In this document: positions 1,244-42,486 of the stretch, piece by piece
Layout: every line of letters starts with the position of its first letter
Numbering within the stretch: position 1 is the stretch's first letter
Origin: an uncultured Methanosarcinales archaeon
GTDB taxonomy: Archaea > Nanobdellota > Nanobdellia > Woesearchaeales > GW2011-AR15
Assembly (NCBI GenBank): GCA_964537195.1
Contig: CAZHYZ010000001.1
Location: forward strand, 93,100 to 157,099
DNA: 64,000 bases
Direction of reading: 5' to 3'
The notes under the pieces: generated by a model
Told to the model about the DNA's origin: nothing
Databases searched by the model: none
Seen by the model: the letters and a program-made list of their open reading frames with translations, nothing else
Position numbers and translations under genes: made by a program

Positions 1244-1699
1244 ATGAACAAAAAAGCACAAGCCACTTCCTGGTCACTTAAAGAAATTTTTACTTTGTTT
1301 CTTAGAATAATGGCTGTTATTGTTCTTGTTGCATTTATTGCAGGAATTGTATCAATATTTACAAAACCAAAGATGTTGGGAAATGCTTATCAAGATTTGG
1401 AGAGAGTAGCAGGGGAAATACAAGATCTTGAAGAGGGTGAATCAATTATTGTTCCAACACTCTCAGTTGGTTATTCTGTAATGATTCGTACATCTGAAGT
1501 TGCCGAAAGTCTTAGACTTCCATGTAAAACAAAAGAAGCAGATTATTGTGCTTGTTTACTAGATAAGGATGAGAATATATTAACTTGTAAAGAAATTGTG
1601 ACTGAAGCAGATATTTCTAATATTGATTTTAATTTAAGATCTGGCGAAACAATTGTTGTTGAACACACAAACGATAGAATAACAATTGGACGAGCATAA
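1244..1699 (+). CDS. Small membrane-anchored protein with a pilin-like N-terminus (MNKKAQ...hydrophobic helix)
   Basis: N-terminal KKAQ followed by a ~25-aa hydrophobic segment. AT-rich TATA-like promoter at 1180-1235. Confidence 0.45.
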   Translation: MNKKAQATSWSLKEIFTLFLRIMAVIVLVAFIAGIVSIFTKPKMLGNAYQDLERVAGEIQDLEEGESIIVPTLSVGYSVMIRTSEVAESLRLPCKTKEADYCACLLDKDENILTCKEIVTEADISNIDFNLRSGETIVVEHTNDRITIGRA

Positions 1700-1702
1700 T
1701 TT

Positions 1703-4700
1703 TTATGTTACACCACTTGCAACTTCTCCATTACCCAATAAACAACCTTTCTGATTCATTTCAGAATATGCTGCAGAATTACAAATAGCAGCTTTCTGTA
1801 GTAAACTTGGAGAACAACCATTACTTATCAATATTTGGGCTAGTTGTTGTGCTGTCCACTCTTTACCATTTCTTATAAATCTATAATACTTACTACCGGA
1901 GTTGTATTCAGCACCCCATTCAGAACTTATTTGACCACTGCATCCGCCCTGCATGTGTTGTAGGTTATGGGTGATTTCGTGTTTGAATAGGGTGTTTAAG
2001 GTCTCTTTGCCTGCACTTTCTAATTTATCTCTTTTACAATATATCCCTATACCATGACAACCAGAGTGGACCCAACACCAGGCATTTTTATTAATGTCGT
2101 TTGTACAATCTGTATAAAGCTTATATGTGCCCCCCATATCGGCCTTTACTTGGTTGAATATTTCCATATGTGGTCCATCATATATCTCTCCAGTGCCTGG
2201 AGAATATTCTCCTGTTGATTGTATAGTACTTGGTTCTGAATATTCCATCTCAGGGATTTCTTTTACACCCTCACTATGCATTGTAACAGCAAACCTAACA
2301 TTAACAGGAAGTTCTGAATATTTATATCTGGAATAAGCATAAACTGTTTCTCCAGTTTCAATACAGAACTTTAATGTAGAACTTTCATCATAATCATCAG
2401 GTTTTTCTATGCAAGAAGTGCCGTCCCAAATACCCCCGCCAGTATAACAATCACTTTCTATTGAGCTATATGTACAATAGTCAATATTCCAATCATCTTT
2501 TCCATTTTCATCAAGCACTTCTTGTGCACATTCTTTATATGTAACATCCAGGTCTCTGCATTTCATTTCTTGCCCATCATCTTTACATAATTTTTCTTGT
2601 CCATCTTGTCCAATACATAAGGGTTGATCAAAGTGGAATTTACATTCATAGTCATATGAATAAGTTGTTGTGGGAGTTATAAAATTATAACATTCAAGAG
2701 TCTGGCCATCATTACTGCATGATTGATAATTTCCATTAATATCTAAACAAATATCTTTAGGGAGAATTCCTTCACAAGTATAATCATAGAAAGCACAATC
2801 TAATGTTTCTGTTATTAATTCATTGCTGGCAAATGCCATGTCATTATGGATGCTTACCAGATCAACATCTGATTCTTCATTAATTTCAGGATTTATAAAA
2901 TAAAATCCAGTGCTTAATTCTTTCATTAGTTTTGATAGGGCTATTAGGTCTAGTGTTTCTGTTAACTCATCAACCGGCTTAGTAGTTGTTGATGAAGGAT
3001 CCCATTCTATATCATTTGGACAGGCATCTTGAAATTGAACTGCCGTGGTATGGAAATCTTCTACATAGCTTTGGATCGCTCTGACAATATCTTCATAGTT
3101 ATCCTCATTCTCAAATGTAGGTGCACGACAACCCCAGCCATTATATAATCTTAAAGCCATATCCCACCCACGGTATACAACATGTTTATCAGGAATACTT
3201 GAAAATTCACTATTATAACAATCATATTCTTTACTAGAACTATGACAATTATATGCATTACATTTTTCCAATAATATTTTAGCGCCACATTCAATATTAT
3301 CATTAACTTTATAGATATCTAATTTGTGACCGTCTATCTCGCTATTACCACAATCTTTTCTGCCCGTTATTTGCATTATACCAACTCCACCGTCACCAGT
3401 AACTAATACACCACCATTTCTATAATGGTCACCACCGCTTTCTTTCTCTGCTATTGTTAATAATATAGTCCCAGGTATATCATATGCATTTGCAACTTGA
3501 CATACATTTTTTTGCTGATCTGATAATTGTTCATAAGTAACCTTACCAGTAATTTGATTGTCTTGAGGTTGAGATATTAATAAAAATGCAAATGCCAATA
3601 TAACAAAAACACCCATTGTAGAGAACACAATTATTTTCTTTTTCTTTATGTAAAAGAAAGCAAAAACAATCAACAAGGTAATAACCAGAGCAACAATGGT
3701 GGGAATTACAAGATTGTTATCCTCCTTTTTATCTGGGATTTGTGATTCTTCTTTTTTCGGAGGAACATATTCATTACCTGCTTTAGTATATTCAATTATT
3801 TCTTTTTGTTCTTCCGGAAGGTATTCTGTTGGAACTTCTTTTGCCTCAAATTGATTTTTACAAGTCCCCATACAACAAGCAGAGGTATCATAGGCAGATA
3901 TACTTAATCCAAAACAGCTTTTTCCCTCTGTACAGATGTCGCCACCAGTTTCTTCACATGATTTAAATTGTTCAAAAACAACAGGTTCTTCTTCTGCTTT
4001 TGGAATGAATTCAAAACTTGTTTCAGTTATTTCATTATCTTCAAGAACATCTACTGCTCTCCCACTTATTAAGGAATTTCCCAGATTACTATCAGAACAT
4101 ACTCGTTTACCCCCTATATAATGTTTGTTCCATTCCTCTTCTTCAAGACTTTTTATTTCTACATTATTTCCCACATGTATAAATTGACAATCTCCATAAT
4201 AAATACCAACATGTGAAATTCCTTGTTTTGATGTGTTTGCAAAAAATATTAAATCTCCTTTTTGGAATTCCTCACAATTTGGAGTTATTTCTTCCCACAC
4301 ATCTAACTCTTGTGTTGGGTCATGGTCAACAACAAACCCGATATTTTCTGCTTGCCATTCTGCGTTTCTTACAGGAATTGTGAAGTCTCCATCTTTTTCT
4401 TGATTTGAATAATAATTATAGACCCACTTTGTAAATGCACTACTGTCAGTGGGACATTTCCCAGTCATTCTCACAATCTCTTCCCATTCTTCCATTATTT
4501 CTGCCCATTCATCTTCACCATAATCAGCATGATTTAAGATTATATTAGAACAATCATCAGGTTCAAGAGGTAATCTTTCTGGATCCCATTCTCCACTACC
4601 AAAAAAATAAGGAAACCCAATACCTTTCTCAGCTATCTTTACAATTGTATCCCCACAATTACTTCCTTGAATAATCTCTTGTTCTTCAGTTGGTGGATTT

Positions 4701-5383
4701 CTGAGAATAAAAGGAGATTCACTAACAACAATATCCTCTCTATTTATACAATTTTCATCTTCTACTTCCTTTATACTTCTATATGAAGTTAGGATTTCTG
4801 GAGCACTTTCATAACATTCTCCTTCTGAAACTGAGAAATATAAAGGTCCTGCATTTGTAGATCCAACACAACACTTTCCCTTAAATTCTGGCATTATCTC
4901 AATTTTTAGATGATTTCCCGGGTAGCCATATAGCATGAATCCATCACTCGTTTCAGAGAACAACATATTGTAGTCGATTGTGGGCATTCCTACGTCCTGG
5001 AATTTTTCAGTATATGTTGGAAGAATTTCTTTAATATATAATGCTAAATTTGTAGAAACAGAAGGAGCACAAGAACCTTCATCACTGTTAATCAATTTGT
5101 ATCCATAATTTTCTCCAATTCCACAACTAAGGCCATACATAAATCCAGTTATAGAACCAGTATATATTCCTTCCATTAAAACTTGTCTTGCTGAAAAGTC
5201 TATATAGTGTTGTACTATCTCTCCTTTTTCATAAGCATCCATTAGGTAGAATTGAGTTGTTCCAGTTCTTTCTTTATATTGATTGAATTTCCCCCACATA
5301 TTTACAATGGTTGTTGTTACTAGAATTATCATTACTACTACTAAAAAAAGTGAGTACTCTGTTCCCCTTTTTCTTAGTTTCAT
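1703..5383 (-). CDS. Giant (1226 aa) class III-signal protein with NlpC/P60-like peptidase, two TM helices, SLT lytic transglycosylase domain, a Cys-rich region and a C-terminal HExxH motif
   Basis: N-terminus MKLRKRGTEYSLFLVVVMIIL. NlpC/P60-like block (DDCSN / DSSAFTKWVY ... GDLIFFANTSKQGISHVGIYYGDCQFIHVGN) at ~4150-4550. TM pair at ~3550-3700. SLT motifs (AEKESGG ... GIMQI ... AYN) at ~3130-3480. HEITHNLQH at ~1960-1990. Confidence 0.7.
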   Translation of the reverse strand: MKLRKRGTEYSLFLVVVMIILVTTTIVNMWGKFNQYKERTGTTQFYLMDAYEKGEIVQHYIDFSARQVLMEGIYTGSITGFMYGLSCGIGENYGYKLINSDEGSCAPSVSTNLALYIKEILPTYTEKFQDVGMPTIDYNMLFSETSDGFMLYGYPGNHLKIEIMPEFKGKCCVGSTNAGPLYFSVSEGECYESAPEILTSYRSIKEVEDENCINREDIVVSESPFILRNPPTEEQEIIQGSNCGDTIVKIAEKGIGFPYFFGSGEWDPERLPLEPDDCSNIILNHADYGEDEWAEIMEEWEEIVRMTGKCPTDSSAFTKWVYNYYSNQEKDGDFTIPVRNAEWQAENIGFVVDHDPTQELDVWEEITPNCEEFQKGDLIFFANTSKQGISHVGIYYGDCQFIHVGNNVEIKSLEEEEWNKHYIGGKRVCSDSNLGNSLISGRAVDVLEDNEITETSFEFIPKAEEEPVVFEQFKSCEETGGDICTEGKSCFGLSISAYDTSACCMGTCKNQFEAKEVPTEYLPEEQKEIIEYTKAGNEYVPPKKEESQIPDKKEDNNLVIPTIVALVITLLIVFAFFYIKKKKIIVFSTMGVFVILAFAFLLISQPQDNQITGKVTYEQLSDQQKNVCQVANAYDIPGTILLTIAEKESGGDHYRNGGVLVTGDGGVGIMQITGRKDCGNSEIDGHKLDIYKVNDNIECGAKILLEKCNAYNCHSSSKEYDCYNSEFSSIPDKHVVYRGWDMALRLYNGWGCRAPTFENEDNYEDIVRAIQSYVEDFHTTAVQFQDACPNDIEWDPSSTTTKPVDELTETLDLIALSKLMKELSTGFYFINPEINEESDVDLVSIHNDMAFASNELITETLDCAFYDYTCEGILPKDICLDINGNYQSCSNDGQTLECYNFITPTTTYSYDYECKFHFDQPLCIGQDGQEKLCKDDGQEMKCRDLDVTYKECAQEVLDENGKDDWNIDYCTYSSIESDCYTGGGIWDGTSCIEKPDDYDESSTLKFCIETGETVYAYSRYKYSELPVNVRFAVTMHSEGVKEIPEMEYSEPSTIQSTGEYSPGTGEIYDGPHMEIFNQVKADMGGTYKLYTDCTNDINKNAWCWVHSGCHGIGIYCKRDKLESAGKETLNTLFKHEITHNLQHMQGGCSGQISSEWGAEYNSGSKYYRFIRNGKEWTAQQLAQILISNGCSPSLLQKAAICNSAAYSEMNQKGCLLGNGEVASGVT

Positions 5384-5832
5384 GATTTGAATATTACCTC
5401 CAGATTCTCAATCTCTCCATTAATCATATAAGGAATTTTTGTTCTGGCATCAAGGTCTCCAATCTTCAAATCAGACATATCAACACAATTATTGTCTTCT
5501 TTAATTATGACACTTTCAAGAAACAAGGTCCAACAAACTTTTTCCCCAAATGCCTCTTCTAGAACATAATTGATTTGTGTTTTACTATCTGTAAAATCCT
5601 CTTCTAAATAGTCAGAGATTAATCTTTCTTGTAATCTTCCTTCTGGTGTTTCAGCTCTTAACAAGTTTAATAAAAACAAATCATTGTTAAGTTTATTTTT
5701 AGTTTCCTCAATCTTAAATACAGATTTCTCCATGAACCCAAGAGAAGCCATTAGAAAAATAAAAAGAAGAATAATTACAATAGTGGCAGCAACATCTACT
5801 TCCACAAAGGCTTTTTTCTTCATTTTCTCCAT
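5380..5832 (-). CDS. Small type IV pilin-like protein (class III signal peptide)
   Basis: MEKMKKKAFVEVDVAATIVIILLFIF N-terminus. Start/stop overlap with flanking genes, so operonic. Confidence 0.5.
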   Translation of the reverse strand: MEKMKKKAFVEVDVAATIVIILLFIFLMASLGFMEKSVFKIEETKNKLNNDLFLLNLLRAETPEGRLQERLISDYLEEDFTDSKTQINYVLEEAFGEKVCWTLFLESVIIKEDNNCVDMSDLKIGDLDARTKIPYMINGEIENLEVIFKS

Positions 5833-6290
5833 GCCACCTCAATTAACAAATTAGCAGGAGCTAAATCTTCAGTTAATACTAAATATCTTTTTTCTATAGC
5901 TTCATAATCATCTGAGAAAGCCAGAGGGAGAATATCTTCATAATACTCTTGGTTATAGTATATCGTTGTCTCTTGGTCTTTTTGTGTAAGTACTAATCTC
6001 GCACCAAGAGGTGTTTTTGATGGGGTCATACAATTGCCTATAGAATCCTCATTAAACTTATCTGTTTCAATAATTCCAGGATAAGCTCTAGTGTTCTCGG
6101 TTTTGATAAAGCAATCAGGCGAGAATAAAAAACGCTCTGCAATTGAATAATATCTCAAATCATCTGTATCAAGACTTTCTTCTATCGTTCCATTGATAAC
6201 AAATACAAGCAACCCAATGACAACAATGGTTCCAATAATTCTGGCAATCCATAAAACATTCTCTCCAGAATCACCTCTTTTATTCATCAA
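5820..6290 (-). CDS. Small type IV pilin-like protein (class III signal peptide)
   Basis: MMNKRGDSGENVLWIARIIGTIVVIGLLVFV N-terminus. Overlaps its neighbours. Confidence 0.5.
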   Translation of the reverse strand: MMNKRGDSGENVLWIARIIGTIVVIGLLVFVINGTIEESLDTDDLRYYSIAERFLFSPDCFIKTENTRAYPGIIETDKFNEDSIGNCMTPSKTPLGARLVLTQKDQETTIYYNQEYYEDILPLAFSDDYEAIEKRYLVLTEDLAPANLLIEVAWRK

Positions 6291-6822
6291 CTAAATCCTC
6301 CTTTGAATTATAAAACCTAATAGTATCTCCTGCTTTAATCATAGAAAGTTTTACTGGAATAACTGATTCAGGCTCATCTTTGTTTTCAAAAAAAGTGAAC
6401 AGGGGGGACATTTCATCATAATATACCTTAATGCTGGGATTTTCAATATAGGAAGATTTTGCAACACTTCCAATTATTATTCCATTCTTAGAGTTATATA
6501 CAGAAATCTCATTCTTTCTGACATCAAATGAGAAATCTTGTGTGTTCTTGTTGTAATTAAATATCAAATCATTTGGACTGGCCATTAGGGTGTCTGCTAA
6601 AATTGCTAAGTCAAGAGCAAGATAATTTTTTTCAAAATAATTTGATGTTGTTACCTGCATTATAAACATATAGACAGGTATGAATACAATAACAAAAACC
6701 ACTATGAACCTTACAATCACATTCCATGACAATGAGAAGTATTCACTACCTCTTTTTGACTTCCACAAATCCATGTCTTTTTCATAGTAAGTTTTCTTTA
6801 TATAGTTTTTTGTTAAAAACAA
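6280..6822 (-). CDS. Small type IV pilin-like protein. The true start is probably the internal MDLWKSKRGSEY (about 6774).
   Basis: KSKRGSEYFSLSWNVIVRFIVVFVIVF motif. Confidence 0.45.
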   Translation of the reverse strand: MFLTKNYIKKTYYEKDMDLWKSKRGSEYFSLSWNVIVRFIVVFVIVFIPVYMFIMQVTTSNYFEKNYLALDLAILADTLMASPNDLIFNYNKNTQDFSFDVRKNEISVYNSKNGIIIGSVAKSSYIENPSIKVYYDEMSPLFTFFENKDEPESVIPVKLSMIKAGDTIRFYNSKEDLVDE

Positions 6823-6857
6823 AACTTATTTAAATCTCAAAAAGCAGGTAAAAGTTA

Positions 6858-7013
6858 ATGTTTCCTAATATATTTAAGAAGGCTCAAACCACCACAATGG
6901 AGCCGGCCACAAGGTTGATAGGGGTTATTTTGCTTGGCGTAGTAATCTTTTTACTCATCTATTTTGCTATATCAGGAAAACTCTCACAGATACTTGTAAG
7001 TGATTTCATATGA
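6858..7013 (+). CDS. Mini pilin-like ORF (51 aa), absent from the ORF track
   Basis: Own translation: MFPNIFKKAQTTTMEPATRLIGVILLGVVIFLLIYFAISGKLSQILVSDFI. Its stop overlaps the ATG of the 7010 gene (ATGA). Confidence 0.35.
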   Translation: MFPNIFKKAQTTTMEPATRLIGVILLGVVIFLLIYFAISGKLSQILVSDFI

Positions 7014-8104
7014 AGAAAGGATATATGACAATACATGGAATAATGGGCATTCTGTTAATATTGGTAGTATTTATGATCTTGTTTGGAGCTACCCCATTAT
7101 ATTATCAGATTATATCTAATTTTGGAGAGGACACACAATGTCAGGCAAGCTTTATAGCAAGTGCTATGACAAGGACACTTGGAAAAACAGTAATAGATCC
7201 AAAATGTCAGACAAAAAGAATAACTTTTGTTGTTGATCAGAAAGAGGAAGGGCAGACAGAAACAGGAGGAGAGAAAAAAGCCATATTGAGAGATTATTCT
7301 AGTAATTTGCCTAGTTTACCTCATGATACTGTTGCAAGAGTTGAAGCTTGGAATGATATTGTTGATGATAATCCTGAATTTTCTGATAATCTAAAATATA
7401 CTTATTATGAGGATTATGAAGATTTGACAGATAAAAAAGAACTAGAGGAAGAAGATTATATTACAATGCGTTACAACATGGATTATTTGATGGCTGATGA
7501 ACTGCAGAGATGCTGGCAGATTGTAGGTAGGGGTAACTTGCCTTTATTTGATGAGTATTGGAAGTTTATTGGGTGTCGTGATTCAGAAGGTGGCCCTGTT
7601 AGAGAGTGTAAAGATGCTGATGATTTTTGGTCTAATGTTGAAAATATTAGGGCCTGGAAAACCAGACCAACAGCAAATTTCTGTGTTTTATGTTCCAGAG
7701 TAAAATTTGATACAGAGTTACAAGAAAAATTTCACGAAGAATATGAATCTATTAATGTATGGATGAAAGTAAATCCTTATACTACTTCCTTGACCGGAGA
7801 TGTGTCTGAAAAAAGTTATTATGAATATGTTATCGATGATTCATTTAAAGGGATAGGAGCACAGCCATATTTTAGTTATACTACGGATGAGGCACAGGCA
7901 GTTGTTTTCATTAGGTATAACTGGCACAAAGGATCTCAATTTGCTGCTGGAGCAGTTCAAATTTCAGACAACATTTTAGGTAAATTGCCTTTTTATGAAG
8001 GAACCTTTGATAACCAGATTGTTCACTATTATAACAGTCTTCAAATAATACCTTATTCAGAATTATCAAATGAATGTAATTACATAGTTGGTTCATATGT
8101 TTAA
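7010..8104 (+). CDS. Secreted/membrane-anchored hypothetical protein with a pilin-like N-terminus
   Basis: MKKGYMTIHGIMGILLILVVFMILFG. No recognisable catalytic motif. Confidence 0.5.
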   Translation: MKKGYMTIHGIMGILLILVVFMILFGATPLYYQIISNFGEDTQCQASFIASAMTRTLGKTVIDPKCQTKRITFVVDQKEEGQTETGGEKKAILRDYSSNLPSLPHDTVARVEAWNDIVDDNPEFSDNLKYTYYEDYEDLTDKKELEEEDYITMRYNMDYLMADELQRCWQIVGRGNLPLFDEYWKFIGCRDSEGGPVRECKDADDFWSNVENIRAWKTRPTANFCVLCSRVKFDTELQEKFHEEYESINVWMKVNPYTTSLTGDVSEKSYYEYVIDDSFKGIGAQPYFSYTTDEAQAVVFIRYNWHKGSQFAAGAVQISDNILGKLPFYEGTFDNQIVHYYNSLQIIPYSELSNECNYIVGSYV

Positions 8105-8240
8105 AAAATCAGAAATAACACTTGAAATGGTTATAATATATATACTTGCACTACTCTTTGCTGTGGTTGTAATTGTATTAGTTGTAAGAAATAATCAGTC
8201 ATTCAGAGATTTATTATCAATGTTTTCAAGAATACTATGA
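8097..8240 (+). CDS. Mini pilin-like ORF (47 aa), absent from the ORF track
   Basis: Own translation: MFKKSEITLEMVIIYILALLFAVVVIVLVVRNNQSFRDLLSMFSRIL, a textbook class III signal peptide. Overlaps the upstream stop by 8 nt and the downstream ATG (ATGA). Confidence 0.35.
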   Translation: MFKKSEITLEMVIIYILALLFAVVVIVLVVRNNQSFRDLLSMFSRIL

Positions 8241-11200
8241 ATAAAAGAGGTCTTACTTTAGAATTAGTTGTAAAAGCTGCAATCTTAGTAATTGTACTTT
8301 TTGTAATGGGGAATTTCATTAGGACAACTTTTTTAGCAGGGGAAGAAGCAAGACATGTAATATTACCAGATTATGGAGAATTTGAACCTTATGAGTATGA
8401 ACCTGTTGGTGATGACGCCACAGTTTCAGATTCTGTTAATGCATTGATTTGTGCTATAAATGCTGTTGCAAAGATTGACAACATAGATGACAAATATTTT
8501 TTGCAATATGAGGGTTATGAAACTTTCTTTGAGGAAAAAGACTGGAGGAAAGGAACTTGTGAAGGCGGTGTTGTAGTTGAGGAAATTGAGAAGGAGGAAG
8601 AACCCACAGGAACACTATGTAGAGCTAACTATGGAAATTGTGTTGCTTCATTAAGTAATGAGAAAGCACATTTTGAAGAAGCAGATTATGATGAGAACAA
8701 TAATGAGAATGTTGAAGAGTTATGTCCAGAAGAAAAACCTTTCTGTGAAATCCAATGTCCTTTTGAGTGGGGTAGTGGATGTAATGATGTTGGAGAAAAG
8801 AAATGTAGATTAGCAACTGCTCGATATTGTATGTCTTCTGGTTATTGGTGTCAGACAAATTGTAAAGAAGAGCTTTATAGGGGTGCTTGTTCAGAAGATA
8901 ATGGAGATATCTTTTGTGGATATTCAAATTATGTTGAATTCGAAATTGAGGAAGAAATTCAGAAACAAGTTGAGCAAGAAGAAACCACACTTAGCTGTAC
9001 AGATGGAATTCTATATGGTTCTAACTGTGTTCAATGTTTTGCTGAAGGAGCTACAAACTTCAAATGTACTGTTTCAGATTTCTATCTGCCTCAGACAGGT
9101 GCAGGAGACAGAGGCACTTTGGACAGGTGGATAGCAGGACTGGGAGATCCTGAATATATAGTTTATTACGAGAAATTTCCACAGGGAGAAGACATATATT
9201 GGACAGCAGATTTTGCATCATTCGGCCCAGCAGTATTGGTGCTTAGTGGGATATCAGCTTTTGTATTTCCATTAAGTGATGAGATTAAGGCAGCCACAAA
9301 AGTAGATGATTTTGGAGATGCCCTTAAAATTGCAAAGACACAGGTCCCATTCTATCGTGTAGTTACAGGTGGATCATCCTTGGTTTCGTCTATCGGAAAC
9401 GTAAGAAAATGGTTCAGTAAAGACACTTATGAAGGACTTGTCAAGAAAAAAGGTTTGAGACATATACTGATTACAAATCAAGATTATTTGCTTGATCCTA
9501 AAACCGCAGATGAGAAGATGGAAGTAATTTCTAAATACATTTCAGGAGGAACTTATAAAGCAGGAGCAAGTAGTACAGATATGATTGATGAATTAGCACC
9601 CTTATTCACTAAAGATCTTGATTCTATTTATTATACTGGAAGTGATGAAGCAGTTGCAGAACTAACTAAAATGATTGACGAAATTAAGCCAAAGCATGCT
9701 TCTTTTCTTAGATATCCTGAAGATGTCAGGAATGCTTTATATAGGGAAGCTTTAGCCAGGGAATTAACTCAAGAATTTGTTGATGAGGATGTAGGTAGAA
9801 TATTAAGTATTTCCAGTGGTGAAGTAATAGAGGAAATGGCTCAAAGACAAGCCACAAGACAAGGCATGAAAGCAATTGTGGGAAATATGTTTGATAGTTC
9901 AGGAGATTTTAGTGACAGAGCATTTAAAAATTTCCTTAAAGAACATGGCAAAAGTGCAGAAGGACTTGAATGGATAATAGATAATCAACAATTATCTGGG
10001 ACACAGACAAAGAAATTATTAACACATTTAAACGATGTAACCGGAGACATCCCATTAGACAGGCAAGTACTCTTTAATAGAAAAATTATGTCTGGACAAA
10101 TAGATGAAATCACACAAAGCATCGATGCTGGCGGAAACATAATTGAAAGTACTGCTTCAACAATGTCTTCAATTTATGGTGGGGCAAAGAATGTTCCTGT
10201 GTTTGGAAAGATTGTAGGGCTGCCTGAATTTGCTGCCAAATTAGGATTAGCTCCAGTCTCAACCCCAAGCAGACGTTTCTTTACTTGGGCAGCACTGTCC
10301 TATTATGGCACATTACACGATAGTGTAAATCAGAAATTTTATCCTTCTGGGAAAGATTCACTGGTCCTTACAACACCCAGTTTGATTGGAGTAAAGCACG
10401 AATTTAATCTTCAAAATGCAGAAAATTATGCTATTGCACTTAGAGAAGATGGTGACACACCAATAAGATTCCACATGGCTAGTCCTTGTAAAGCAGATTT
10501 AGAATTGTATCCTGCAACGGTTATTGCAAAATCAGATGAGACCTCGATAACAAGATACGATCTATATGACTTTGGATATGGATTTACCCCTGTTGAAAAA
10601 GGTTCTATACAATATGATGAGGTTGCTTTTGAATTTTCACAGAAGGAATATCCACAAGGGGATTCTTTAATTAGGGATGCAGATGAAGCAATGGAAGAAG
10701 AGAATTATAAAGAAGCACTAATAAAATATCTTGAATATCTTGAAAAATATCCAGATAGTAAAAAGTTTGATTCTGTGTTTAATAAGGTTGATTCAATCTT
10801 AACAACAGGAGAAATATTGACTACGTTTGATAAAGAAGAGTTAAGGGAAATTGCTTTTACAGACAGGTTAGATGTTGATACACGGGCCAGAATTAATAGT
10901 TATGCAATTAGAATGAAAGATTCCGTAGATGAAGGGTGTGGTAGTTATGAAGGATATAAAGAAAAAATTGAATGGTGTGAAGGACTTATTAATGGAGAAT
11001 ATTATGCATTTAGAGACTCGGTTTTCATTCAGGATAGTGGAGCGGTTTATGATCCTCTTTATGATTGGACTTACTTTGATTATTCTTATTATGGTTATTT
11101 GAAAAAACAGAGGTTTGAAGATATAAGTACAAAGTATATGTTGTCTTTATTGTATGTTGATTCTAGAACACACTTTGATGTTAGGACAGGAGAGTCTGCT

Positions 11201-12028
11201 TGGTTAATCGACGCCGATTATGATAATTTGGATTTTGATATTGGACTTCTAGAACTTTATAAATGGATTGGAGAAAGATTTAACTTTGGTTATGCAGATA
11301 GAGTGGTTTTTGGAGAAGCCGGTCAAGATCCTTGGATTTCTCCATTTATGTTTGACATAGGAGATTTCCCAGTTCCAAAACATTTACTCTACAAGCAAGA
11401 TGTTTACTTAGATAAGAAGATTTCTTGGCTACCAGATCCTGACACATATGAGGATGAAGTTGTTAGATATAATAGACAGCTCTTAAGAGATAGTTCATTT
11501 ACAGGAGAAAGTTATGGTGATTTGTTAAAAAAGAAAGTCTTGTATGAAACCAAGGCTTCAATCTTAGAAAATGTTCCTGGACAGAGCATTACAGAACAAG
11601 AGGTTGAAAACTGGGTTAGTATATCTAAGGAGATTCAAAATTCTTATGATGAAAAAATAACAAAAGAAAATGCAGTTAAACTTATTGGATTTGATGAAAC
11701 AGTATATCCAGAAGAGTCCTTTTTTGAGAGTGACTGGCACAAGTTTAGATCTATTACTATAGAAGCAGATATTGATGAATCTCTTGATTCAAATTACTGT
11801 TATCATGGACATCATCCAACAAGAGCAACAATAAGGACATTAGTTGTTGGAGCAAGCCTGTTTGCAGATGAAATTGGCGGAACACTTGCAGGAGGTGCTT
11901 GCGCATCTACGGCAGTTTTAGCTCCCTTTTCTGGGTTGTGTGCAAGAGGAGGAATGTTTGTAACAGACATCATTTTTGCTTTGGGAGAGAACTTTATTAA
12001 CAAACTAGACAAGTGGCCAAGACGTTAA
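8237..12028 (+). CDS. Giant (1263 aa) class III-signal surface protein of unknown function with Cys-rich and TPR-like segments
   Basis: MNKRGLTLELVVKAAILVIVLFVMG N-terminus. Cys-rich block at ~8600-9100. Hydrophobic C-terminal segment. Confidence 0.6.
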   Translation: MNKRGLTLELVVKAAILVIVLFVMGNFIRTTFLAGEEARHVILPDYGEFEPYEYEPVGDDATVSDSVNALICAINAVAKIDNIDDKYFLQYEGYETFFEEKDWRKGTCEGGVVVEEIEKEEEPTGTLCRANYGNCVASLSNEKAHFEEADYDENNNENVEELCPEEKPFCEIQCPFEWGSGCNDVGEKKCRLATARYCMSSGYWCQTNCKEELYRGACSEDNGDIFCGYSNYVEFEIEEEIQKQVEQEETTLSCTDGILYGSNCVQCFAEGATNFKCTVSDFYLPQTGAGDRGTLDRWIAGLGDPEYIVYYEKFPQGEDIYWTADFASFGPAVLVLSGISAFVFPLSDEIKAATKVDDFGDALKIAKTQVPFYRVVTGGSSLVSSIGNVRKWFSKDTYEGLVKKKGLRHILITNQDYLLDPKTADEKMEVISKYISGGTYKAGASSTDMIDELAPLFTKDLDSIYYTGSDEAVAELTKMIDEIKPKHASFLRYPEDVRNALYREALARELTQEFVDEDVGRILSISSGEVIEEMAQRQATRQGMKAIVGNMFDSSGDFSDRAFKNFLKEHGKSAEGLEWIIDNQQLSGTQTKKLLTHLNDVTGDIPLDRQVLFNRKIMSGQIDEITQSIDAGGNIIESTASTMSSIYGGAKNVPVFGKIVGLPEFAAKLGLAPVSTPSRRFFTWAALSYYGTLHDSVNQKFYPSGKDSLVLTTPSLIGVKHEFNLQNAENYAIALREDGDTPIRFHMASPCKADLELYPATVIAKSDETSITRYDLYDFGYGFTPVEKGSIQYDEVAFEFSQKEYPQGDSLIRDADEAMEEENYKEALIKYLEYLEKYPDSKKFDSVFNKVDSILTTGEILTTFDKEELREIAFTDRLDVDTRARINSYAIRMKDSVDEGCGSYEGYKEKIEWCEGLINGEYYAFRDSVFIQDSGAVYDPLYDWTYFDYSYYGYLKKQRFEDISTKYMLSLLYVDSRTHFDVRTGESAWLIDADYDNLDFDIGLLELYKWIGERFNFGYADRVVFGEAGQDPWISPFMFDIGDFPVPKHLLYKQDVYLDKKISWLPDPDTYEDEVVRYNRQLLRDSSFTGESYGDLLKKKVLYETKASILENVPGQSITEQEVENWVSISKEIQNSYDEKITKENAVKLIGFDETVYPEESFFESDWHKFRSITIEADIDESLDSNYCYHGHHPTRATIRTLVVGASLFADEIGGTLAGGACASTAVLAPFSGLCARGGMFVTDIIFALGENFINKLDKWPRR

Positions 12029-12678
12029 TATAATCTTATAATGATTGCATCATCTACTTCTTCTGCTAAAACTTCAGATTCAGAAATATCTCCAACAATA
12101 ATCCCGCCTTTTGATTCCATGTAATTATTACTAAAACGAGATTTATCATCATTTATTTTTGTATAATATATGCCATTAGAAATCTCCTCAAAATCAAATT
12201 CTTTATAGTTCTCATAATCAGCTCCCCAAAATATATTTGTCTTTTTCATTTGTTGTTTCCAGTCTTTATCAACAAAAATAAATGCAACTGGGTTGTCATC
12301 AATTATTCTTTCAATAATAAAACCTTCAATTACATTGTTATTAGGATTAAGCTCAGATGTGAATCTGATAAGAACATTTTCATCATCATCAACATATTCA
12401 TCCTTGAAATACACTCCTTTGTAGATTCCGTCGTGTCCAAAAGCAGTTCTGATTTGAGGTTGGTTTATCTGTTGACCTATATAATCTAAATAACTAGTAC
12501 CTTTTGTGGCTTCTTCTATATCAACTTCTTTTATATTTCCATTTGAGATTATCCAATCTCTTGGATCATCAGAATATTCATCCTTACTCGGAAAGAATTT
12601 GTATACAATAAAAGATCCAAGAGTAAAGACTACAATTGCAACAAGAAGTAATACCTTCTTTTGTTCACCTGATTTCAT
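12025..12678 (-). CDS. Membrane-anchored hypothetical protein. Start preferred at internal Met 12678 (MKSGEQKKVLLLVAIVVF); the ORF track extends it to 12792.
   Basis: The N-terminal TM follows the internal Met. The longer version would overlap the divergent 12750 gene and promoter. Confidence 0.4.
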   Translation of the reverse strand: MKSGEQKKVLLLVAIVVFTLGSFIVYKFFPSKDEYSDDPRDWIISNGNIKEVDIEEATKGTSYLDYIGQQINQPQIRTAFGHDGIYKGVYFKDEYVDDDENVLIRFTSELNPNNNVIEGFIIERIIDDNPVAFIFVDKDWKQQMKKTNIFWGADYENYKEFDFEEISNGIYYTKINDDKSRFSNNYMESKGGIIVGDISESEVLAEEVDDAIIIRLY

Positions 12679-12749
12679 ACATTTTTTTAGCCAGACCGAG
12701 TTTATATAATTTTCTTTTGGAAAAATATTTATATCTGTGTTCGTAGGAT

Positions 12750-13055
12750 ATGTATATGAATAAAAAAGGACTTGAGATATCACCACCTTCATTAGTAGTT
12801 GTCATTATACTTCTTTTGTTTGTTTTAGTCGTATTAGTATTTATATTTGGAGGACAGAGTGGAGAATTCTTAAAAATAATAAACAAATGGAGAGGAGACA
12901 TAACTTCTGAAGATAAATGTGAAAGTTCTATACTTGGCAGATATTGTGGGGAACCTCCTTGCGGGGAAGGATTAAGACCAAGAAAATTGCCACCCCCACC
13001 AAGTGGAGATTGGATAGATTGTACAGAAGGCTGTTATGAATGTATTCCAGAGTAA
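12750..13055 (+). CDS. Small pilin-like protein with a Cys-rich C-terminal knot
   Basis: MNKKGLEISPPSLVVVIILLLFVLVVLVFIFG, then CESSILGRYCGEPPCGEG...CTEGCYEC. Confidence 0.45.
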   Translation: MYMNKKGLEISPPSLVVVIILLLFVLVVLVFIFGGQSGEFLKIINKWRGDITSEDKCESSILGRYCGEPPCGEGLRPRKLPPPPSGDWIDCTEGCYECIPE

Positions 13056-13075
13056 GATAATTAGTTTCTATTTGT

Positions 13076-13366
13076 TTATTCAGAATTACCGATCTCAGGT
13101 ATTATTCTTTTACAACAAATGCCACCATCTTCACATTCAGCGCCAGGAACTCTGGCATAATCTTCTATGCATTTGTTGGAATCCTTAGAATCTCTAAAAG
13201 CATCATCACACTCTCCACCAACAGTCTCACAACTATTGGCTTGAGTAACAAACAAACCGGACTGCCTGCCAACAATAAACACCAGAATTATCAGGACCAT
13301 CAGAGCAATAACTGCTATCACAATTGTGTTTATTGAAATAGATTGAGCTTTTTTCATCTTATACAC
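13076..13366 (-). CDS. Small pilin-like protein with a Cys-rich tail (paralog of 13359..13634)
   Basis: MYKMKKAQSISINTIVIAVIALMVLIILVFIVG ... CETVGGECDD... Confidence 0.5.
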   Translation of the reverse strand: MYKMKKAQSISINTIVIAVIALMVLIILVFIVGRQSGLFVTQANSCETVGGECDDAFRDSKDSNKCIEDYARVPGAECEDGGICCKRIIPEIGNSE

Positions 13367-13634
13367 TTATACAACACACTTTGTCTGGATCTTCTTCGCC
13401 ATTAGTGTAACATGGGTGGTTGGTAACTTTCTGATAATCTCCATCACATGCATCTCCTTTATTAACAGCATCTCTGTCTTCACAACTACCGCCGACAGAA
13501 TGACAATTGTCTGTCTGTTGTCTCCAATTACCTAAGTTTTGTGTGGTGATTAAAAGAATTAAAATCAAGACTACAAGAGCAATAGCTGCAACAACTATTG
13601 TGTTTATTGAAATTGCTTGTGATTTCTTTCTCAT
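13359..13634 (-). CDS. Small pilin-like protein with a Cys-rich tail (tandem paralog)
   Basis: MRKKSQAISINTIVVAAIALVVLILILLIT ... CHSVGGSCED... Confidence 0.5.
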   Translation of the reverse strand: MRKKSQAISINTIVVAAIALVVLILILLITTQNLGNWRQQTDNCHSVGGSCEDRDAVNKGDACDGDYQKVTNHPCYTNGEEDPDKVCCISV

Positions 13635-13673
13635 GAGGAAAATTATTGATATTAAGATATATAAAAGTTTTGG

Positions 13674-14144
13674 TTATTTACAGATATCTAATCTAATCTC
13701 TAAAGTATTTAAGTATCTGAAACTTGGAGGATATTTCTCAGCAGCATCATCGCAGACAGAATTTTCAGGGATATCGGGTATTAATTTTTGACCTGTTTTT
13801 CTATTCTTTACACTGAATTTATATGGTTTTTTCCATTCTCCTAAAGTGATCTTTAAAGCATTAGAAATAGTCTGTCTCGCATATTCACAACAATCAGCAT
13901 TTGCACCACAGGCATCATTTCTTCCTTGAGCACAATCCAATAAAATATCAGAAACCTCTGAGTTAATCTCTGTCTTTGTATCCAGAATAACATTAAGAAA
14001 ACTCTGAGCTAATTCAGGATTAACATATTCTGAAGAGAGAGATTCTTCTTTATTAGTCCTTACAACAATCATAAAAAAACCAGCAATAACTAGGATTAAT
14101 ACAATAAAAACAATTCCAACAATCTCTGTTTGTGCTCTTTTCAT
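13674..14144 (-). CDS. Type IV pilin-like protein
   Basis: MKRAQTEIVGIVFIVLILVIAGFFMIV. Confidence 0.5.
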   Translation of the reverse strand: MKRAQTEIVGIVFIVLILVIAGFFMIVVRTNKEESLSSEYVNPELAQSFLNVILDTKTEINSEVSDILLDCAQGRNDACGANADCCEYARQTISNALKITLGEWKKPYKFSVKNRKTGQKLIPDIPENSVCDDAAEKYPPSFRYLNTLEIRLDICK

Positions 14145-14674
14145 CTATAAACACCCAGTTTTAAAACACCAAAATAATTTGAGTTTTTAATAGGGTCTCT
14201 TAATAAAACAGGATAATGAACATACATTATTCCATTATTTTCTGATGGAGGATTATCATAGATATTCCATTCCTCAATCCATTTATTTTCATCAGGGCTT
14301 GGATCAAATCTTTTTACAGTTATATTTAAATTTCCAAGAGCATTATGATAATACCTATCATCTTGAGTTTTTTCTTGCTCTAATCTATCCTTGAATGCAA
14401 TCATCTTTAATATGTCATAGCAATCTGGATCAATATCATTACTATCAGAACATTGCAACTCTGGTATGAAATTGAGAACTTGAGATTTCTTTACTATTTC
14501 CAGCCCCCTAAGTTGTTCAATTTTTTCTTTTCTATCTTGTTCCTGAATTGCCATAACAAAAATAAAAGCTAATATTAGAATAATAAATATAGTAATAAGT
14601 ACAAAGGAGTTCTCCATCATTTGTAACTGAGCTTTTTTTGACATTTTAATATATAGTTGGACAAGCCTTTTCAT
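14141..14674 (-). CDS. Type IV pilin-like protein (start probably MSKKAQ at ~14644)
   Basis: MSKKAQLQMMENSFVLITIFIILILAFIFVMA. Confidence 0.45.
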   Translation of the reverse strand: MKRLVQLYIKMSKKAQLQMMENSFVLITIFIILILAFIFVMAIQEQDRKEKIEQLRGLEIVKKSQVLNFIPELQCSDSNDIDPDCYDILKMIAFKDRLEQEKTQDDRYYHNALGNLNITVKRFDPSPDENKWIEEWNIYDNPPSENNGIMYVHYPVLLRDPIKNSNYFGVLKLGVYR

Positions 14675-15677
14675 TTAATCTTTCATTGATTACATTTAAT
14701 TCGGTGCTTGCATCAGCAATATTATTTATCTTCTCTTTTGTTATGTCCCCTCTTACTGAGGTATATTCTTCCAAATCGTTCAATAGAGAAAAGGCCTGAT
14801 TATAATATTGCAAATCACACAAAGAAGGCAGATTTGAATTTCTGATTATATTCACTCTTTTTTTTAGTACGTCTGTTAATCTGTTTAGTCTTTTGAAAGC
14901 CTTTTCATCGAGATTGCATTCATAAGTTCCACTATTTTCAGAATATACTGCTGCAATTAATGTTGCTGTATCTAAGTAATATGTCCTATCCTTTTCTACA
15001 AACATATTGCCTTGTTTTTCATAAAAAATTATCTCACCATCTTCTATAAGAATTGCAGTAACATCTTCATCGTTTGCTCTTATTACTGATGTGTGTAATG
15101 TAAATAAGCTAGGATCTTTTGAATTTGAAATAAATCTGATTTTGTAGTAATTTTCATTCCTGAAATTAAATTCTTCATTAATACTAATTAGAAATTTTGT
15201 TAGATCGTCTGGCATTTCCTCATAAAGATGTTCGTTCTCATAATCTTCTCCAACAAAGACATAAGAAACTTCCGGACTTGTCATGTATAAAAAATTATTT
15301 ACTTTAAATGGAACATTCCAAGACAAACCATAACTTAATATCTTTGTTTTAATTGTATGCGGACTAAACAAAGGAAGAAACTCCGTAGATCTGCCTTCTA
15401 AGTCAGACCCAGAGAACGTGTAAAAAAAACAATTGTCTCTTGTAGTACTGACTTCCAATTCTAATCCAGATAGTTCAATGGGGCTCTGAGTTCTTTCACT
15501 ACTTTGTAATCCAGTAAGAATCTCATCCAATATATTTATGGAATCAATCTCCAACTGTTTTTGAGAACTTTGTCTTATTCCAGAGATAATATTAACAAAA
15601 AACAGTAGAATAACTACTCCAATAACACCAATATAAATCCAGTTAAACTGTACTTCTACAACGGCTTTTTTGTTCAT
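14646..15677 (-). CDS. Type IV pilin-like protein (343 aa)
   Basis: MNKKAVVEVQFNWIYIGVIGVVILLFFV. Confidence 0.5.
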   Translation of the reverse strand: MNKKAVVEVQFNWIYIGVIGVVILLFFVNIISGIRQSSQKQLEIDSINILDEILTGLQSSERTQSPIELSGLELEVSTTRDNCFFYTFSGSDLEGRSTEFLPLFSPHTIKTKILSYGLSWNVPFKVNNFLYMTSPEVSYVFVGEDYENEHLYEEMPDDLTKFLISINEEFNFRNENYYKIRFISNSKDPSLFTLHTSVIRANDEDVTAILIEDGEIIFYEKQGNMFVEKDRTYYLDTATLIAAVYSENSGTYECNLDEKAFKRLNRLTDVLKKRVNIIRNSNLPSLCDLQYYNQAFSLLNDLEEYTSVRGDITKEKINNIADASTELNVINERLNEKACPTIY

Positions 15678-16156
15678 CTTAATAGAGCAGAATTACCCTT
15701 TCCTATTAATGTAACAGTTAATAATCCTTCGTTCTCTAAGCAAAGATAATCAGATTCTACATTCAAATTATCTACATAAAAAGAGTCCTCGATTATGTTG
15801 TTTTTTAATAAGAAAACATTCTTTGGGACATTATCTTTTATACTGTCTTCTATAAATAAATTATCAATATCAGCATCCAAATCAAAGACTTCTTCATCCG
15901 TCATGGAATCAACAAAACATATTGTGTCGAATCTATCGGGAAGCCGGAACTCATATTTTTCTACAGATTCATATTGTCTAGATATTTTAGACACGATTCT
16001 ATCAAAATCATCTTTTAAATTATCTAGTGGGATTTGGTTGCCTGCCTTAAGTATGGTAGAAACTGCCTTGTAGCCTACAGCAAGTATTATGACTACAATT
16101 ACAGCAGCCATTATATATACAAAAACTTGAGATGATATTTGTGCCTTTGATTTCAT
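15674..16156 (-). CDS. Type IV pilin-like protein
   Basis: MKSKAQISSQVFVYIMAAVIVVIILAVG. Confidence 0.5.
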   Translation of the reverse strand: MKSKAQISSQVFVYIMAAVIVVIILAVGYKAVSTILKAGNQIPLDNLKDDFDRIVSKISRQYESVEKYEFRLPDRFDTICFVDSMTDEEVFDLDADIDNLFIEDSIKDNVPKNVFLLKNNIIEDSFYVDNLNVESDYLCLENEGLLTVTLIGKGNSALLR

Positions 16157-24447: not shown

Positions 24448-24603
24448 ATTTAAGATTAGCCAGGCCTCAGCTAACTCTCTTTCTCCCATAAAGGGACTAC
24501 TCCGAAGTATCCTCATCGGCCTGGTCATTAAAGGAAAAACATATACATTAAAAAAGTTTAGTAAAAGAAAAATATATAAAACATGTTTCTCTATGAAAAC
24601 ATA

Positions 24604-25137
24604 ATGAAAAAAAGAGGCCAGATAGCAGTAGAGTATATTCTTATTATAACAGTAGCGCTTATGATTATTCTTCCAGGAATTTATCTGTTTAGAAATTATG
24701 TGTCTCAATCAAGTGACCAGATAGTGGAAAGAAGACTAACTGAGATATCTAACTCAATAATAACAAAAGGGAGAAAGATGTATTATTATGGACCACCATC
24801 AAAATCAACGGTAACGGTTGAGTTGCCTCCTGAGATTAGGGCAATGTACCTTCTTGGAGTCAATGGCTCAGATAAGGAAGTAATTGAATCTTACCTAGTT
24901 TTTAGAACAATCTCCTCACAAGGAGAACAAGATTTTCTTTTTGAGTCAGATGTTCCTCTTTATGCTGTGGATGAAGCAAGTAGGTGTGAAATAAGTGATC
25001 AGTGTTCAAAAGGATACTGCATATGTTTTGATAACAGATTTTATTCTAAAGGAATAAAGAACTTTGAAGTGCAGGCTAAAGATTGTATTTTTGGTACTTG
25101 CATATTCATAGATGAAATCTCTCCGGATTTAAGATGA
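24604..25137 (+). CDS. Type IV pilin-like protein (archetypal DUF361-type class III signal peptide)
   Basis: MKKRGQIAVEYILIITVALMIILPGIY. The ORF track starts 21 nt upstream. Confidence 0.55.
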   Translation: MKKRGQIAVEYILIITVALMIILPGIYLFRNYVSQSSDQIVERRLTEISNSIITKGRKMYYYGPPSKSTVTVELPPEIRAMYLLGVNGSDKEVIESYLVFRTISSQGEQDFLFESDVPLYAVDEASRCEISDQCSKGYCICFDNRFYSKGIKNFEVQAKDCIFGTCIFIDEISPDLR

Positions 25138-25787: not shown

Positions 25788-26326
25788 ATAAAAAAGCCTA
25801 CATATTTTTGATGGATGGTATAATTGCTGTAGTTATACTGACGGTTGGTTTTCTCCTAATTAGTTCGAATAAACCAGATGAGACAACAGAAATTCCAATA
25901 AGTATGATGACTGAGAACACTATGTCTTTATTTTCTAATATTAAATTGTATGAAATATGTGATTTTTCTGATTGTGGTTGCAGCAATGATAAGTTGTCAG
26001 AGTATTGTGCATCTGGTTATATTGAAAATAAAAATCAGACACTCTTAGATTATTTTGGTGAATTATATAATAGATCTATGCAAAGTAGAGCTGATGAGCT
26101 TTTCTATAATATAACAATAGAAAACGACTTGCTTAGGCAAGACATTTTTGGTGTAGAGTTTAAGATAAATGATGAAACAATATATCTACATGGCATAAAC
26201 AAAGAAAAAAGCAAAGACCTAATTTCTTCAAAAAGAATTATTTTCGGATATTATGAAGTGCCTTCTTCGGGTATAATTAATTACTGGGGGCCATATTTGG
26301 CAGAGGTGAATGTATGGCAAGAATAA
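25784..26326 (+). CDS. Type IV pilin-like protein
   Basis: MNKKAYIFLMDGIIAVVILTVGFLLISS. Confidence 0.5.
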   Translation: MNKKAYIFLMDGIIAVVILTVGFLLISSNKPDETTEIPISMMTENTMSLFSNIKLYEICDFSDCGCSNDKLSEYCASGYIENKNQTLLDYFGELYNRSMQSRADELFYNITIENDLLRQDIFGVEFKINDETIYLHGINKEKSKDLISSKRIIFGYYEVPSSGIINYWGPYLAEVNVWQE

Positions 26327-42436: not shown

Positions 42437-42486
42437 CTTCTTTTCAAAAATATTTATATATTACTAAATAAGTAGACTATGTAATA

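Follow-up and report, generated by a model that had tools for sequence, protein, structure and literature searches.

What does an archaeon build with a run of genes whose products nearly all begin like prepilins? Such a run, termed here island 1, fills positions 1244–16156 of the 64-kb stretch of archaeal chromosome analysed in this study (the window), where a first-pass annotation had seen a diversified repertoire of surface proteins whose signal peptides are of class III (type IV pilin-like). With moderate confidence, we read island 1 and the adjoining gene g18 as building a surface apparatus that resembles type IV filaments, be it a pilus or a short pseudopilus, and may target bacterial cell walls. 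The reading draws on the N-terminal motif, the selection acting on it, synteny, family size, the modelled N-terminal helix of one core protein (g16) and the hydrolase domains found in the cluster.

Prepilin-type N-termini in island 1

Listing the open reading frames (ORFs) and scanning their N-termini with a leader rule of our own yielded 17 genes between 1244 and 16156, g1 to g17 (Table 1), rather than the nineteen consecutive genes first counted. The run is tight and is interrupted at g10; because this gene encodes a plain membrane anchor, the motif-bearing runs are g1–g9 and g11–g17. In the other 16 genes a basic leader of 3–15 amino acids (aa) ends in K or R; G, A or S comes next, ahead of a hydrophobic segment. 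Against a background of 17% G+A+S among the residues of window proteins, this count has a binomial P of ~7e-12. The pattern reported in the first pass, with almost every ORF starting [KR][KR]-(G/A/S)-Q/x before a hydrophobic helix, is therefore real and far above chance, although its counts were off and g10 has no such site. A leader of the FlaFind type (K/R at −2 and G/A/S at −1 before a hydrophobic domain) is present in all but g10, and on sequence we regard a fit of these N-termini to the class III (prepilin-type) rule as supported.

The most hydrophobic 16-aa stretch begins 4–12 residues past the putative site in the motif-bearing genes, and all island products tested have one N-terminal hydrophobic segment of at least 19 residues each. 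Seven of the 16 sites (g1, g6, g12, g13, g14, g15 and g17) read K/R-[AGS]-Q, the form cut by EppA, a methanogen peptidase for which Gln at +1 is a requirement (PMC4371748). Every Cys-containing ectodomain has an even number of Cys residues. Large numbers of class III-type genes are not surprising in themselves, since archaeal genomes commonly encode 16–47 predicted class III proteins (PMC4371748).

The genes form operons with overlapping stops on both strands, as first described (for example at 5380–5383, 7010–7013, 8237–8240, 14141–14144, 15674–15677 and 16153–16156). Giant products of up to 1263 aa were also borne out, the two largest having 1226 and 1263 aa, but no 37-aa minipilin was found: the smallest products are those of g8 (47 aa; first-start ORF 50 aa) and g6 (51 aa). 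The predicted cleavage would leave g6 and g8 each with exactly 42 residues, and their stops overlap the starts of the far larger pilin-like g7 and g9, respectively; the equal mature length and the overlaps together suggest a paired function for g6/g7 and g8/g9.

Selection on the site

A word-based search with g2 returned, beyond g2 itself, a single orthologue (P0003), whereas the same search with g9 recovered only g9. Genome and metagenome scans seeded with g2 led to the same second species only, represented by contig L003, to which L005–L007 are 99.9% identical. L003 carries the whole island in identical order, adjoining the gene for replication protein A (RPA), and its proteins share from 29% (g9) to 61% (g4, g5) identity with those of the window. 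In all 15 alignable families the −1 residue in L003 is G, A or S, and swaps from the window to L003 stay within this set: G to A in g2, g4, g7 and g9, A to S in g6 and S to A in g8. In 10 of the 15 orthologue pairs, conservation is higher over the first 40 aa than over the rest of the protein; in g1, which was found only in the window and L003 and is 53% identical overall, the values are 65% and 37%. This comparison indicates that the N-terminal motif is under selection.

The exception is instructive. In g10, the position of the site reads KKV in the window and KKQ in the orthologue. With homologues in L010 (1e-30) and L015 (4e-41), g10 is by its sequence a plain membrane anchor, a conserved member of the cluster and not pilin-like.

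A conserved gene cluster in nine lineages

We examined the gene neighbourhoods of nine g16 relatives, comparing proteins by phmmer and translating loci L009–L015. The cluster, unannotated until now, is seen in nine lineages, this genome and eight others, and those with names are labelled Woesearchaeota or Nanoarchaeota. Its recurrent order runs from a large surface protein of TSP3/Big type (g18) through g17, g16, g15, g14 and two or three small Cys-rich proteins of the g11–g13 type to a ~40-aa mini-protein (g6), g7, a ~50–60-aa mini-protein (g8), the giant g9 and g10. The succession g18-g17-g16-g15-g14, small proteins, g7, g8, g9, g10 is kept in L009–L015. In L013 it continues with homologues of g5 and g4, a positional counterpart of g3, a protein with an SLT domain and then RPA; the window has the same cluster content, rearranged by inversions. 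Apart from the large surface proteins and g10, most members in L009–L015 share the N-terminus type described above; in a few, the N-terminus as called is truncated or has no site.

Within island 1 only g11, g12 and g13 are mutual paralogues; the remaining genes are unrelated to each other, and most have orthologues in the same order in distant genomes. Island 1 is thus, as judged from these comparisons, an ordered, fixed multi-component system of many families and not the diversified repertoire of variants first proposed. Although it lies outside the region first annotated, g18 also belongs to the system by its genomic context: homologues lie directly upstream of g17 in L009–L013, L015 and L016. 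Its product has a Sec-type signal (AYA/DY, the slash marking the cleavage site here and below), an fn3-like region, bacterial TSP3 repeats (Pfam TSP3_bac, 4.8e-10), a C-terminal membrane anchor with a transmembrane segment at 708–726 and a charged tail.

The cluster lies beside PCNA and RNase J, or beside RPA, and this position is conserved among relatives, which argues for vertical chromosomal inheritance. In L015, a groundwater contig, the gene directly after the g10 counterpart is convergent (14663–16300, − strand) and encodes a protein of 545 aa that has a type II secretion GspG (pseudopilin) domain at its C-terminus and lacks a class III N-terminus.

The g16 family and the small Cys-rich proteins

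An exhaustive HMMER search with g16 returned 1216 clusters (50% identity) at E ≤ 1e-3, 892 of them reaching E ≤ 1e-10; among the 150 matches listed, most cover the full length of g16. Pfam holds no family that covers these relatives, and none of the members looked up has a functional annotation; JGI gives one of them the name 'UPF0333 family'. At the N-terminus the family consensus reads [KR][KR]-[GA]-x-[IV]-E-[IV]-Q-F-N-W-I-F-V-L-I-x-G. Among 132 members, 127 have K/R at −2 and 121 (92%) have G/A/S at −1, with a median leader of 6 residues, and Gln occupies +1 in 26% of the family.

The predicted structure of g16 (predicted local distance difference test (pLDDT) 95.8; predicted template modelling (pTM) score 0.90) has an unbroken N-terminal helix spanning residues 3–57. 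At 55 residues, the modelled helix has the length expected for the first helix of a type IV pilin, and the model as a whole has the architecture of a type IV filament subunit, an extended N-terminal helix of ~50 residues followed by a globular domain. For g14 the model places a helix at residues 3–31, then a low-confidence break and an alpha/beta domain.

The g12-type proteins, present in two or three tandem copies in every related locus, align (alignment A5) with a conserved N-terminus, near-invariant as KKAQ-S/G-x-S-x-N-x-I-V-V-A-A-I-A-L, and a highly variable Cys-rich C-terminus ending in CC. Taken with the N-biased conservation between the two species, this looks like the divergence pattern of pilins.

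Peptidoglycan hydrolases in the cluster

The most informative clue to function, overlooked in the first-pass annotation, lies in the peptidoglycan hydrolase domains. The product of g2 consists of an N-domain, an NlpC/P60 domain (343–425), a Cys-rich stretch, a membrane hairpin (558–602, with a KKKK loop), an SLT domain (630–713) and, over the C-terminal 420 aa, a region that contains a conserved HExxH motif. The NlpC/P60 domain scores above the Pfam cut-off (1.7e-12), and its PDB profile matches are LytE, CwlO and MepS at 4e-10. Its nucleophile (domain limits ~308–430) is Ser in the window (DSSAF; codon AGT at 4442–4444, − strand) and Cys in P0003 (DCSSF), with the His kept, and the domain may be either inactivated or a Ser-nucleophile variant. 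The SLT domain scores 3.8e-5 (23.7 bits against a cut-off of 21.3). Its motifs AEKESGG, GVGIMQIT and YNGWG are kept in P0003, and the corresponding motifs in the SLT protein of L013 are TESG, GLMQIN and AYNGLG; the catalytic Glu-Ser, G-x-M-Q and Y-N-G we take to be the motifs of family 1 lytic transglycosylases. By Pfam score and motifs, residues ~630–760 qualify as a GH23/SLT lytic transglycosylase. Identity between g2 and P0003 is 80% in the SLT region and 50% overall.

Hydrolases with the pilin-like type of N-terminus recur in the cluster in three forms: NlpC/P60 plus SLT in g2, SLT in L013 and Amidase_2 in L010. The L013 protein (407 aa, beginning ...SSKKG/FGVQYYFLIAAFF) occupies the same position adjoining RPA, and that of L010 begins MNKKG/DTTILKEAIYVVIG. 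No hydrolase was seen at the remaining loci; in several of these (L009, L011, L012 and L014) the locus or contig stops short of the cluster's distal end. Since murein is, to our knowledge, not made by Archaea, g2 would most plausibly target the wall of a bacterial partner. In the passages that concern them, large murein transglycosylases of Woesearchaeota have been taken as hints of attack on bacteria (PMC9723730; PMC12352652).

Genomic setting

The window is a low-GC stretch (30–37% GC) in which the base composition shows no break at island 1, and repeat and tRNA scans of the island revealed no integrase, repeat or tRNA boundaries and nothing to suggest a mobile element. The gene for RPA extends past the left end of the window; 3′ of the island lie PCNA, an RNase J-like gene, ribosomal proteins, valyl- and aspartyl-tRNA synthetases (ValRS, AspRS) and GatCAB. 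Ribosomal protein S11 of the window groups at ≥90% identity with S11 labelled 'Candidatus Woesearchaeota archaeon', and the named g16 relatives come from Woesearchaeota, Nanoarchaeota or 'archaeon' genomes; on this evidence a DPANN origin of the window is well supported. The most closely related genome record, which holds L003 and L005 (GCA_964552005.1, contig CAZKFC010000001.1), is titled 'uncultured Methanosarcinales archaeon', which conflicts with a DPANN placement. Because its locus is syntenic with the window, whose S11 and g16 relatives indicate Woesearchaeota/Nanoarchaeota, the Methanosarcinales label of this record looks wrong.

A filament or an anchored complex

In the apparatus that we favour, 16 products with class III-type signal peptides would be inserted into the membrane via Sec and cut after the conserved G/A/S by a PibD/EppA-type prepilin peptidase encoded elsewhere. 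Their N-terminal helices would then pack together, powered by an ATPase and a platform protein that would also be encoded elsewhere. The small, tandemly duplicated, Cys-rich g11–g13 would be the likely bulk subunits, g14–g17 conserved minor or initiator subunits, and the helix-only g6 and g8 would join g7 and the giant g9 in a module that is distal or adhesive. We picture g18 as a Sec-exported, C-terminally anchored surface protein. Accompanied by g5, g4 and g3, g2 would be held in the membrane with its peptidoglycan-cleaving domains exposed, and the hydrolase would most plausibly open a partner bacterium's wall where contact is made. Cleavage, filament assembly, the individual subunit roles and the bacterial target are the parts of this scheme that we infer.

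Several results weigh against it. PF04021, a hidden Markov model (HMM) that the first-pass annotation had proposed for checking its reading, matches no island-1 protein; nor, at E ≤ 0.1 to 1, does any island-1 protein or small-family member match another Pfam pilin family or a pilin model of NCBIfam. When the island proteins were scanned against Pfam and NCBIfam, only NlpC/P60 and SLT in g2 and TSP3/fn3 in g18 were returned. The best PDB match of a small-family profile, PilA5 of the Thermus narrow pilus, is non-significant (E ~0.5, just above generic membrane helices) and was not used. The fold search with the confident g16 model gave no PDB match, so this is a confidently modelled fold with no solved counterpart, and the globular parts of g16 and g14 are unlike solved pilins or pseudopilins. 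No assembly ATPase, platform protein or prepilin peptidase is encoded in the 64-kb window, and T2SSE, T2SSF and Peptidase_A24 have no match within 10 kb of the cluster in L003, L009–L016 or a JGI contig. In g1, g4, g6, g15 and g16 the most hydrophobic stretch starts 9–12 residues past the site, which is late by comparison with textbook prepilins. The cysteine-nucleophile motif (D-C-S-x-F) is missing from the NlpC/P60 domain of g2 in this genome. Three transmembrane segments in g2, one N-terminal and two in the hairpin, are all conserved in P0003, and because of them g2 cannot, on its predicted topology, be an extractable pilin; it should remain membrane-bound, with its two enzyme regions on the outside.

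The earlier interpretation is thus partly supported: the site rule and its conservation speak for a class III/prepilin signature, whereas curated pilin HMMs, fold matches and linked assembly genes are absent. Judged by the sequences assembled here, DPANN proteins of this kind are under-called by the class III and pilin models now in use.

The main rival explanation, which we consider unlikely but serious, holds that the proteins keep their N-termini uncleaved, as type II (N-in, C-out) signal-anchored proteins, and form a membrane-tethered envelope or surface complex without a filament. The basic residues would then reflect the positive-inside rule, and the small residue would merely start the helix. 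This would account for the negative pilin HMMs and fold searches, the polytopic g2, the plain anchor g10 within the same cluster, the late hydrophobic core of several members and the lack of linked assembly genes in nine lineages, although pilin genes unlinked from pilB, pilC or other assembly genes are common in archaea (PMC4371748; PMC4858521). The positive-inside rule leaves unexplained, however, why G, A or S stands at −1 in ~15 unrelated families, in two species and in 92% of the g16 family, and why +1 is so often Gln. N-termini more conserved than their ectodomains and a continuous 55-residue helix are typical of pilins, and g10 serves as an example of a plain anchor from the same operon context: in both species it lacks the site.

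Quite improbable, in our view, is a scaffold resembling a bindosome or a type II secretion pseudopilus, short and membrane-proximal, that docks g2, g7 and g9 and serves to scavenge nutrients from cell-wall debris rather than acting as a long adhesive pilus or a host-attack device. Class III signals on Sulfolobus sugar-binding proteins are established and have been proposed to be widespread (10.64898/2026.04.22.720090; PMC4858521); hydrolases here carry the motif, and the protein with a GspG-type domain adjoins the cluster in L015. Yet none of the loci examined has an ABC transporter or a substrate-binding domain within or next to the cluster, and multi-copy small subunits with variable Cys-rich tips resemble exposed filament subunits. 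Such a scaffold is a milder variant of the favoured apparatus, differing mainly in filament length and purpose. Finally, a cassette of mobile or viral origin, or an accumulation of orphan ORFs that evolve fast and resemble one another at the N-terminus by chance, would suit the lack of Pfam or NCBIfam families for most products and the word search in which g9 found only itself, but it is refuted by synteny and family size, with gene order kept across distant lineages, more than 1,200 g16 clusters and a conserved placement between RPA and PCNA/RNase J, and it also disagrees with the uniform base composition and the missing integrase, repeat or tRNA boundaries.

Returning to the favoured filament or pseudopilus, a bolder form of it can be put forward tentatively, as a possibility that we think less than likely. 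The cluster may represent an unrecognised organelle found DPANN-wide, in which ~15 pilin-like families that escape current pilin models carry or position SLT, NlpC/P60 and Amidase_2 enzymes to breach bacterial walls. It would then be the contact or feeding machinery of parasites or predators of bacteria, and a marker separating bacteria-associated from archaea-associated DPANN.

Relation to known systems

The closest parallels come from archaeal filaments. Like island 1, the Epd pilus of Methanococcus maripaludis (archaeal type IV filament 'system 1') is encoded by a multi-gene operon with many class III-signal proteins and K/R-[GA]-Q sites with Gln at +1. Its major subunit has little beyond the N-terminal helix, comparable to the helix-only g6 and g8, its locus includes large adhesin-like proteins, and 'system 1' is reported to occur in DPANN (PMC4371748; 10.64898/2026.04.22.720090; PMC4858521). 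Unlike island 1, the Epd locus holds its own ATPase, two platform genes and EppA, and has no murein hydrolase; Epd pilins match DUF361/PF04021, which island-1 proteins do not, and all families here are distinct from the Epd families described. The clade 4G loci of Thermoproteales described by Makarova, Koonin and Albers (2016) contain many small, fast-evolving, Cys-containing putative minor pilins and two large proteins, one S-layer-like with a C-terminal anchor, resembling g18 plus g9 (PMC4858521). They are, however, defined by a linked clade 4G ATPase and TadC, belong to a different phylum, lack a hydrolase and have no detectable sequence relationship to island 1. In the Sulfolobus bindosome (Bas), a class III N-terminus likewise sits on large proteins with a catalytic or binding job instead of a structural one, but there the cargo is sugar-binding proteins beside ABC transporters, whereas here it would be cell-wall hydrolases and domain-less proteins in one cluster.

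Bacterial minor-pilin/PilY1 operons, as far as the PilY analogy is drawn (PMC4858521), combine several small pilin-like proteins with one very large tip or adhesion protein, and the modular pilins PilB and PilC of Streptococcus sanguinis, in the passages describing them, fuse pilin N-termini to functional modules (PMC8179133; PMC9934059). In contrast to island 1, these belong to the N-methylated family with Glu5, and no homology was detected here; the giants of island 1 are larger (1226 and 1263 aa), and g2 is polytopic. The large lytic murein transglycosylases of Woesearchaeota (AR20; Lake A genomes) are, like g2, large archaeal GH23/SLT enzymes (PMC9723730; PMC12352652). In their passages on the enzyme, these accounts treat it as stand-alone and say nothing of a class III-like N-terminus, three small partners, pili or a conserved pilin-like cluster.

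New, as far as we could find, is a conserved cluster of ~15–20 genes in nine lineages, made up of families that neither Pfam nor NCBIfam contains, together with the recurrence of murein hydrolases bearing the pilin-like N-terminus and a confidently modelled core protein for which no solved counterpart was found. Among the loci sampled, no assembly ATPase, platform protein or peptidase is linked within 10 kb, and surveys seeded with an ATPase would probably miss the cluster because none is linked within that distance. Woesearchaeota- and Nanoarchaeota-type DPANN abound in nature, and we know of no cultured representative. For them the cluster offers a concrete, widespread gene set linking pilin-like surface proteins to enzymes that cut bacterial walls. 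Were the link functional, it would support a cross-domain interaction of archaeon on bacterium, provide marker genes for predicting host type from genomes and account for ATPase-first surveys having overlooked these subunits.

Individual genes and other surface proteins of the window

Two database matches within island 1 were set aside: a Pfam 'AtDEF-like' plant defensin-like match of g13 (26.8 bits against a threshold of 25), probably due to its hydrophobic helix and Cys pattern, and a DUF6715 match of g17, which is probably of the same kind or sub-threshold. For g15, the start of the orthologue (MRKRA/QLQIMENTF) backs the 167-aa start.

Table 1 Genes of island 1, g18 and other surface-protein genes of the window. 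A slash marks the putative cleavage site; E-values refer to homologues at the loci named.
Feature	Position	Strand	Product	Relatives
g1	1244..1699	+	151 aa; MNKKA/QATSWSLKEIF...; hydrophobic core 12 residues after the site	
g2	1703..5383	−	1226 aa; leader RKRG/TEYSLF; NlpC/P60 and SLT	
g3	5380..5832	−	150 aa; MEKMKKKA/FVEVDV...	Positional counterpart in L013 (174 aa)
g4	5820..6290	−	156 aa; MMNKRG/DSGENVLWIARIIG...	Orthologue 61% identical; L013, 8.8e-6
g5	6280..6774	−	164 aa from start MDLWKSKRG/SEYFSLSW; first-start ORF to 6822	L003 orthologue 60–61% identical; L013, 6.9e-9
g6	6858..7013	+	51-aa helix-only mini-protein; ...FKKA/QTTTMEPATRLIGV...	L003 orthologue 61% identical; ~40-aa counterparts in L012 and L015
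g7	7010..8104	+	364 aa; MKKG/YMTIHG...; 8 Cys	L010, L011, L015 (1e-26 to 5.5e-32)
g8	8097..8240	+	47-aa helix-only mini-protein; MFKKS/EITLEMVIIY...	Orthologue 49% identical; small positional counterparts between g7 and g9 in L009, L011, L013, L015
g9	8237..12028	+	1263-aa giant; MNKRG/LTLELV...; 24 Cys; no known domain	L011 (1e-38), L015 (2e-21), L009 (2e-9)
g10	12025..12792	−	Type II membrane protein; likely start 12678, giving 217 aa	
g11	12750..13055	+	101 aa; small Cys-rich pilin-like protein; MYMNKKG/LEISPPSLVVV...	
g12	13076..13366	−	96 aa; small Cys-rich protein; KKA/QSISINTIVIAVIAL; candidate major subunit	
g13	13359..13634	−	91 aa; RKKS/QAISINTIVVAAIAL	Tandem paralogue of g12, 41% identical
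g14	13674..14144	−	156 aa; MKRA/QTEIVGIV...; 6 Cys; core family	
g15	14141..14674	−	177-aa ORF; likely start MSKKA/QLQMMENSF..., giving 167 aa; core family	
g16	14646..15677	−	343 aa; MNKKA/VVEVQFNWIYIG...; core family, cluster marker	
g17	15674..16156	−	160 aa; MKSKA/QISSQVFVYIM...; core family	
g18	16153..18783	−	876 aa; first gene of the g18-to-g12 operon	
Island 2	24583..27989, continuing to 32484	+	Pilin-like operon; five genes (184, 217, 180, 254, 305 aa)	
	32528..33592	+	354 aa	
	36596..40501	−	1301-aa surface protein	
Island 3	40583..44406	+	617 and 639 aa	Paralogues, 43% identical
	44412..46133	−	Three tandem multi-pass membrane proteins, ~190 aa	Apparently paralogous

The rule-based scan also picked out two further pilin-like groups, islands 2 and 3. 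Island 2 has textbook class III N-termini, such as KKRG/QIAVEYIL, and its proteins at 24583 and 27072 pass or nearly pass Pfam PF04021 (6.8e-6 and 6.4e-5); the last protein also has a cohesin domain (1.2e-8). These PF04021 proteins indicate, by sequence, that the cell does use class III signals, and a prepilin peptidase must therefore be assumed in it. Downstream of the five genes of island 2 is a 1478-aa protein with 140 Cys and a Sec-type signal.

The two island-3 proteins begin MRKS/Q and MKKA/Q. A 1372-aa homologue in L009 (12284–16402) sits inside the conserved cluster, between the g14 and g13 counterparts, and for this reason island 3 may be a detached part of the same system. The 1301-aa surface protein has 13 thrombospondin type 3 repeats (Pfam 1.3e-57), 109 Cys, a Sec-type signal and a C-terminal anchor, with weak repeat-level similarity to g18. 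The three multi-pass membrane proteins encoded directly after island 3 match no known family above threshold. The 354-aa protein combines a membrane helix at its N-terminus with an acidic stretch resembling a coiled coil and a long K/S/T-rich low-complexity tail with KKKS repeats.

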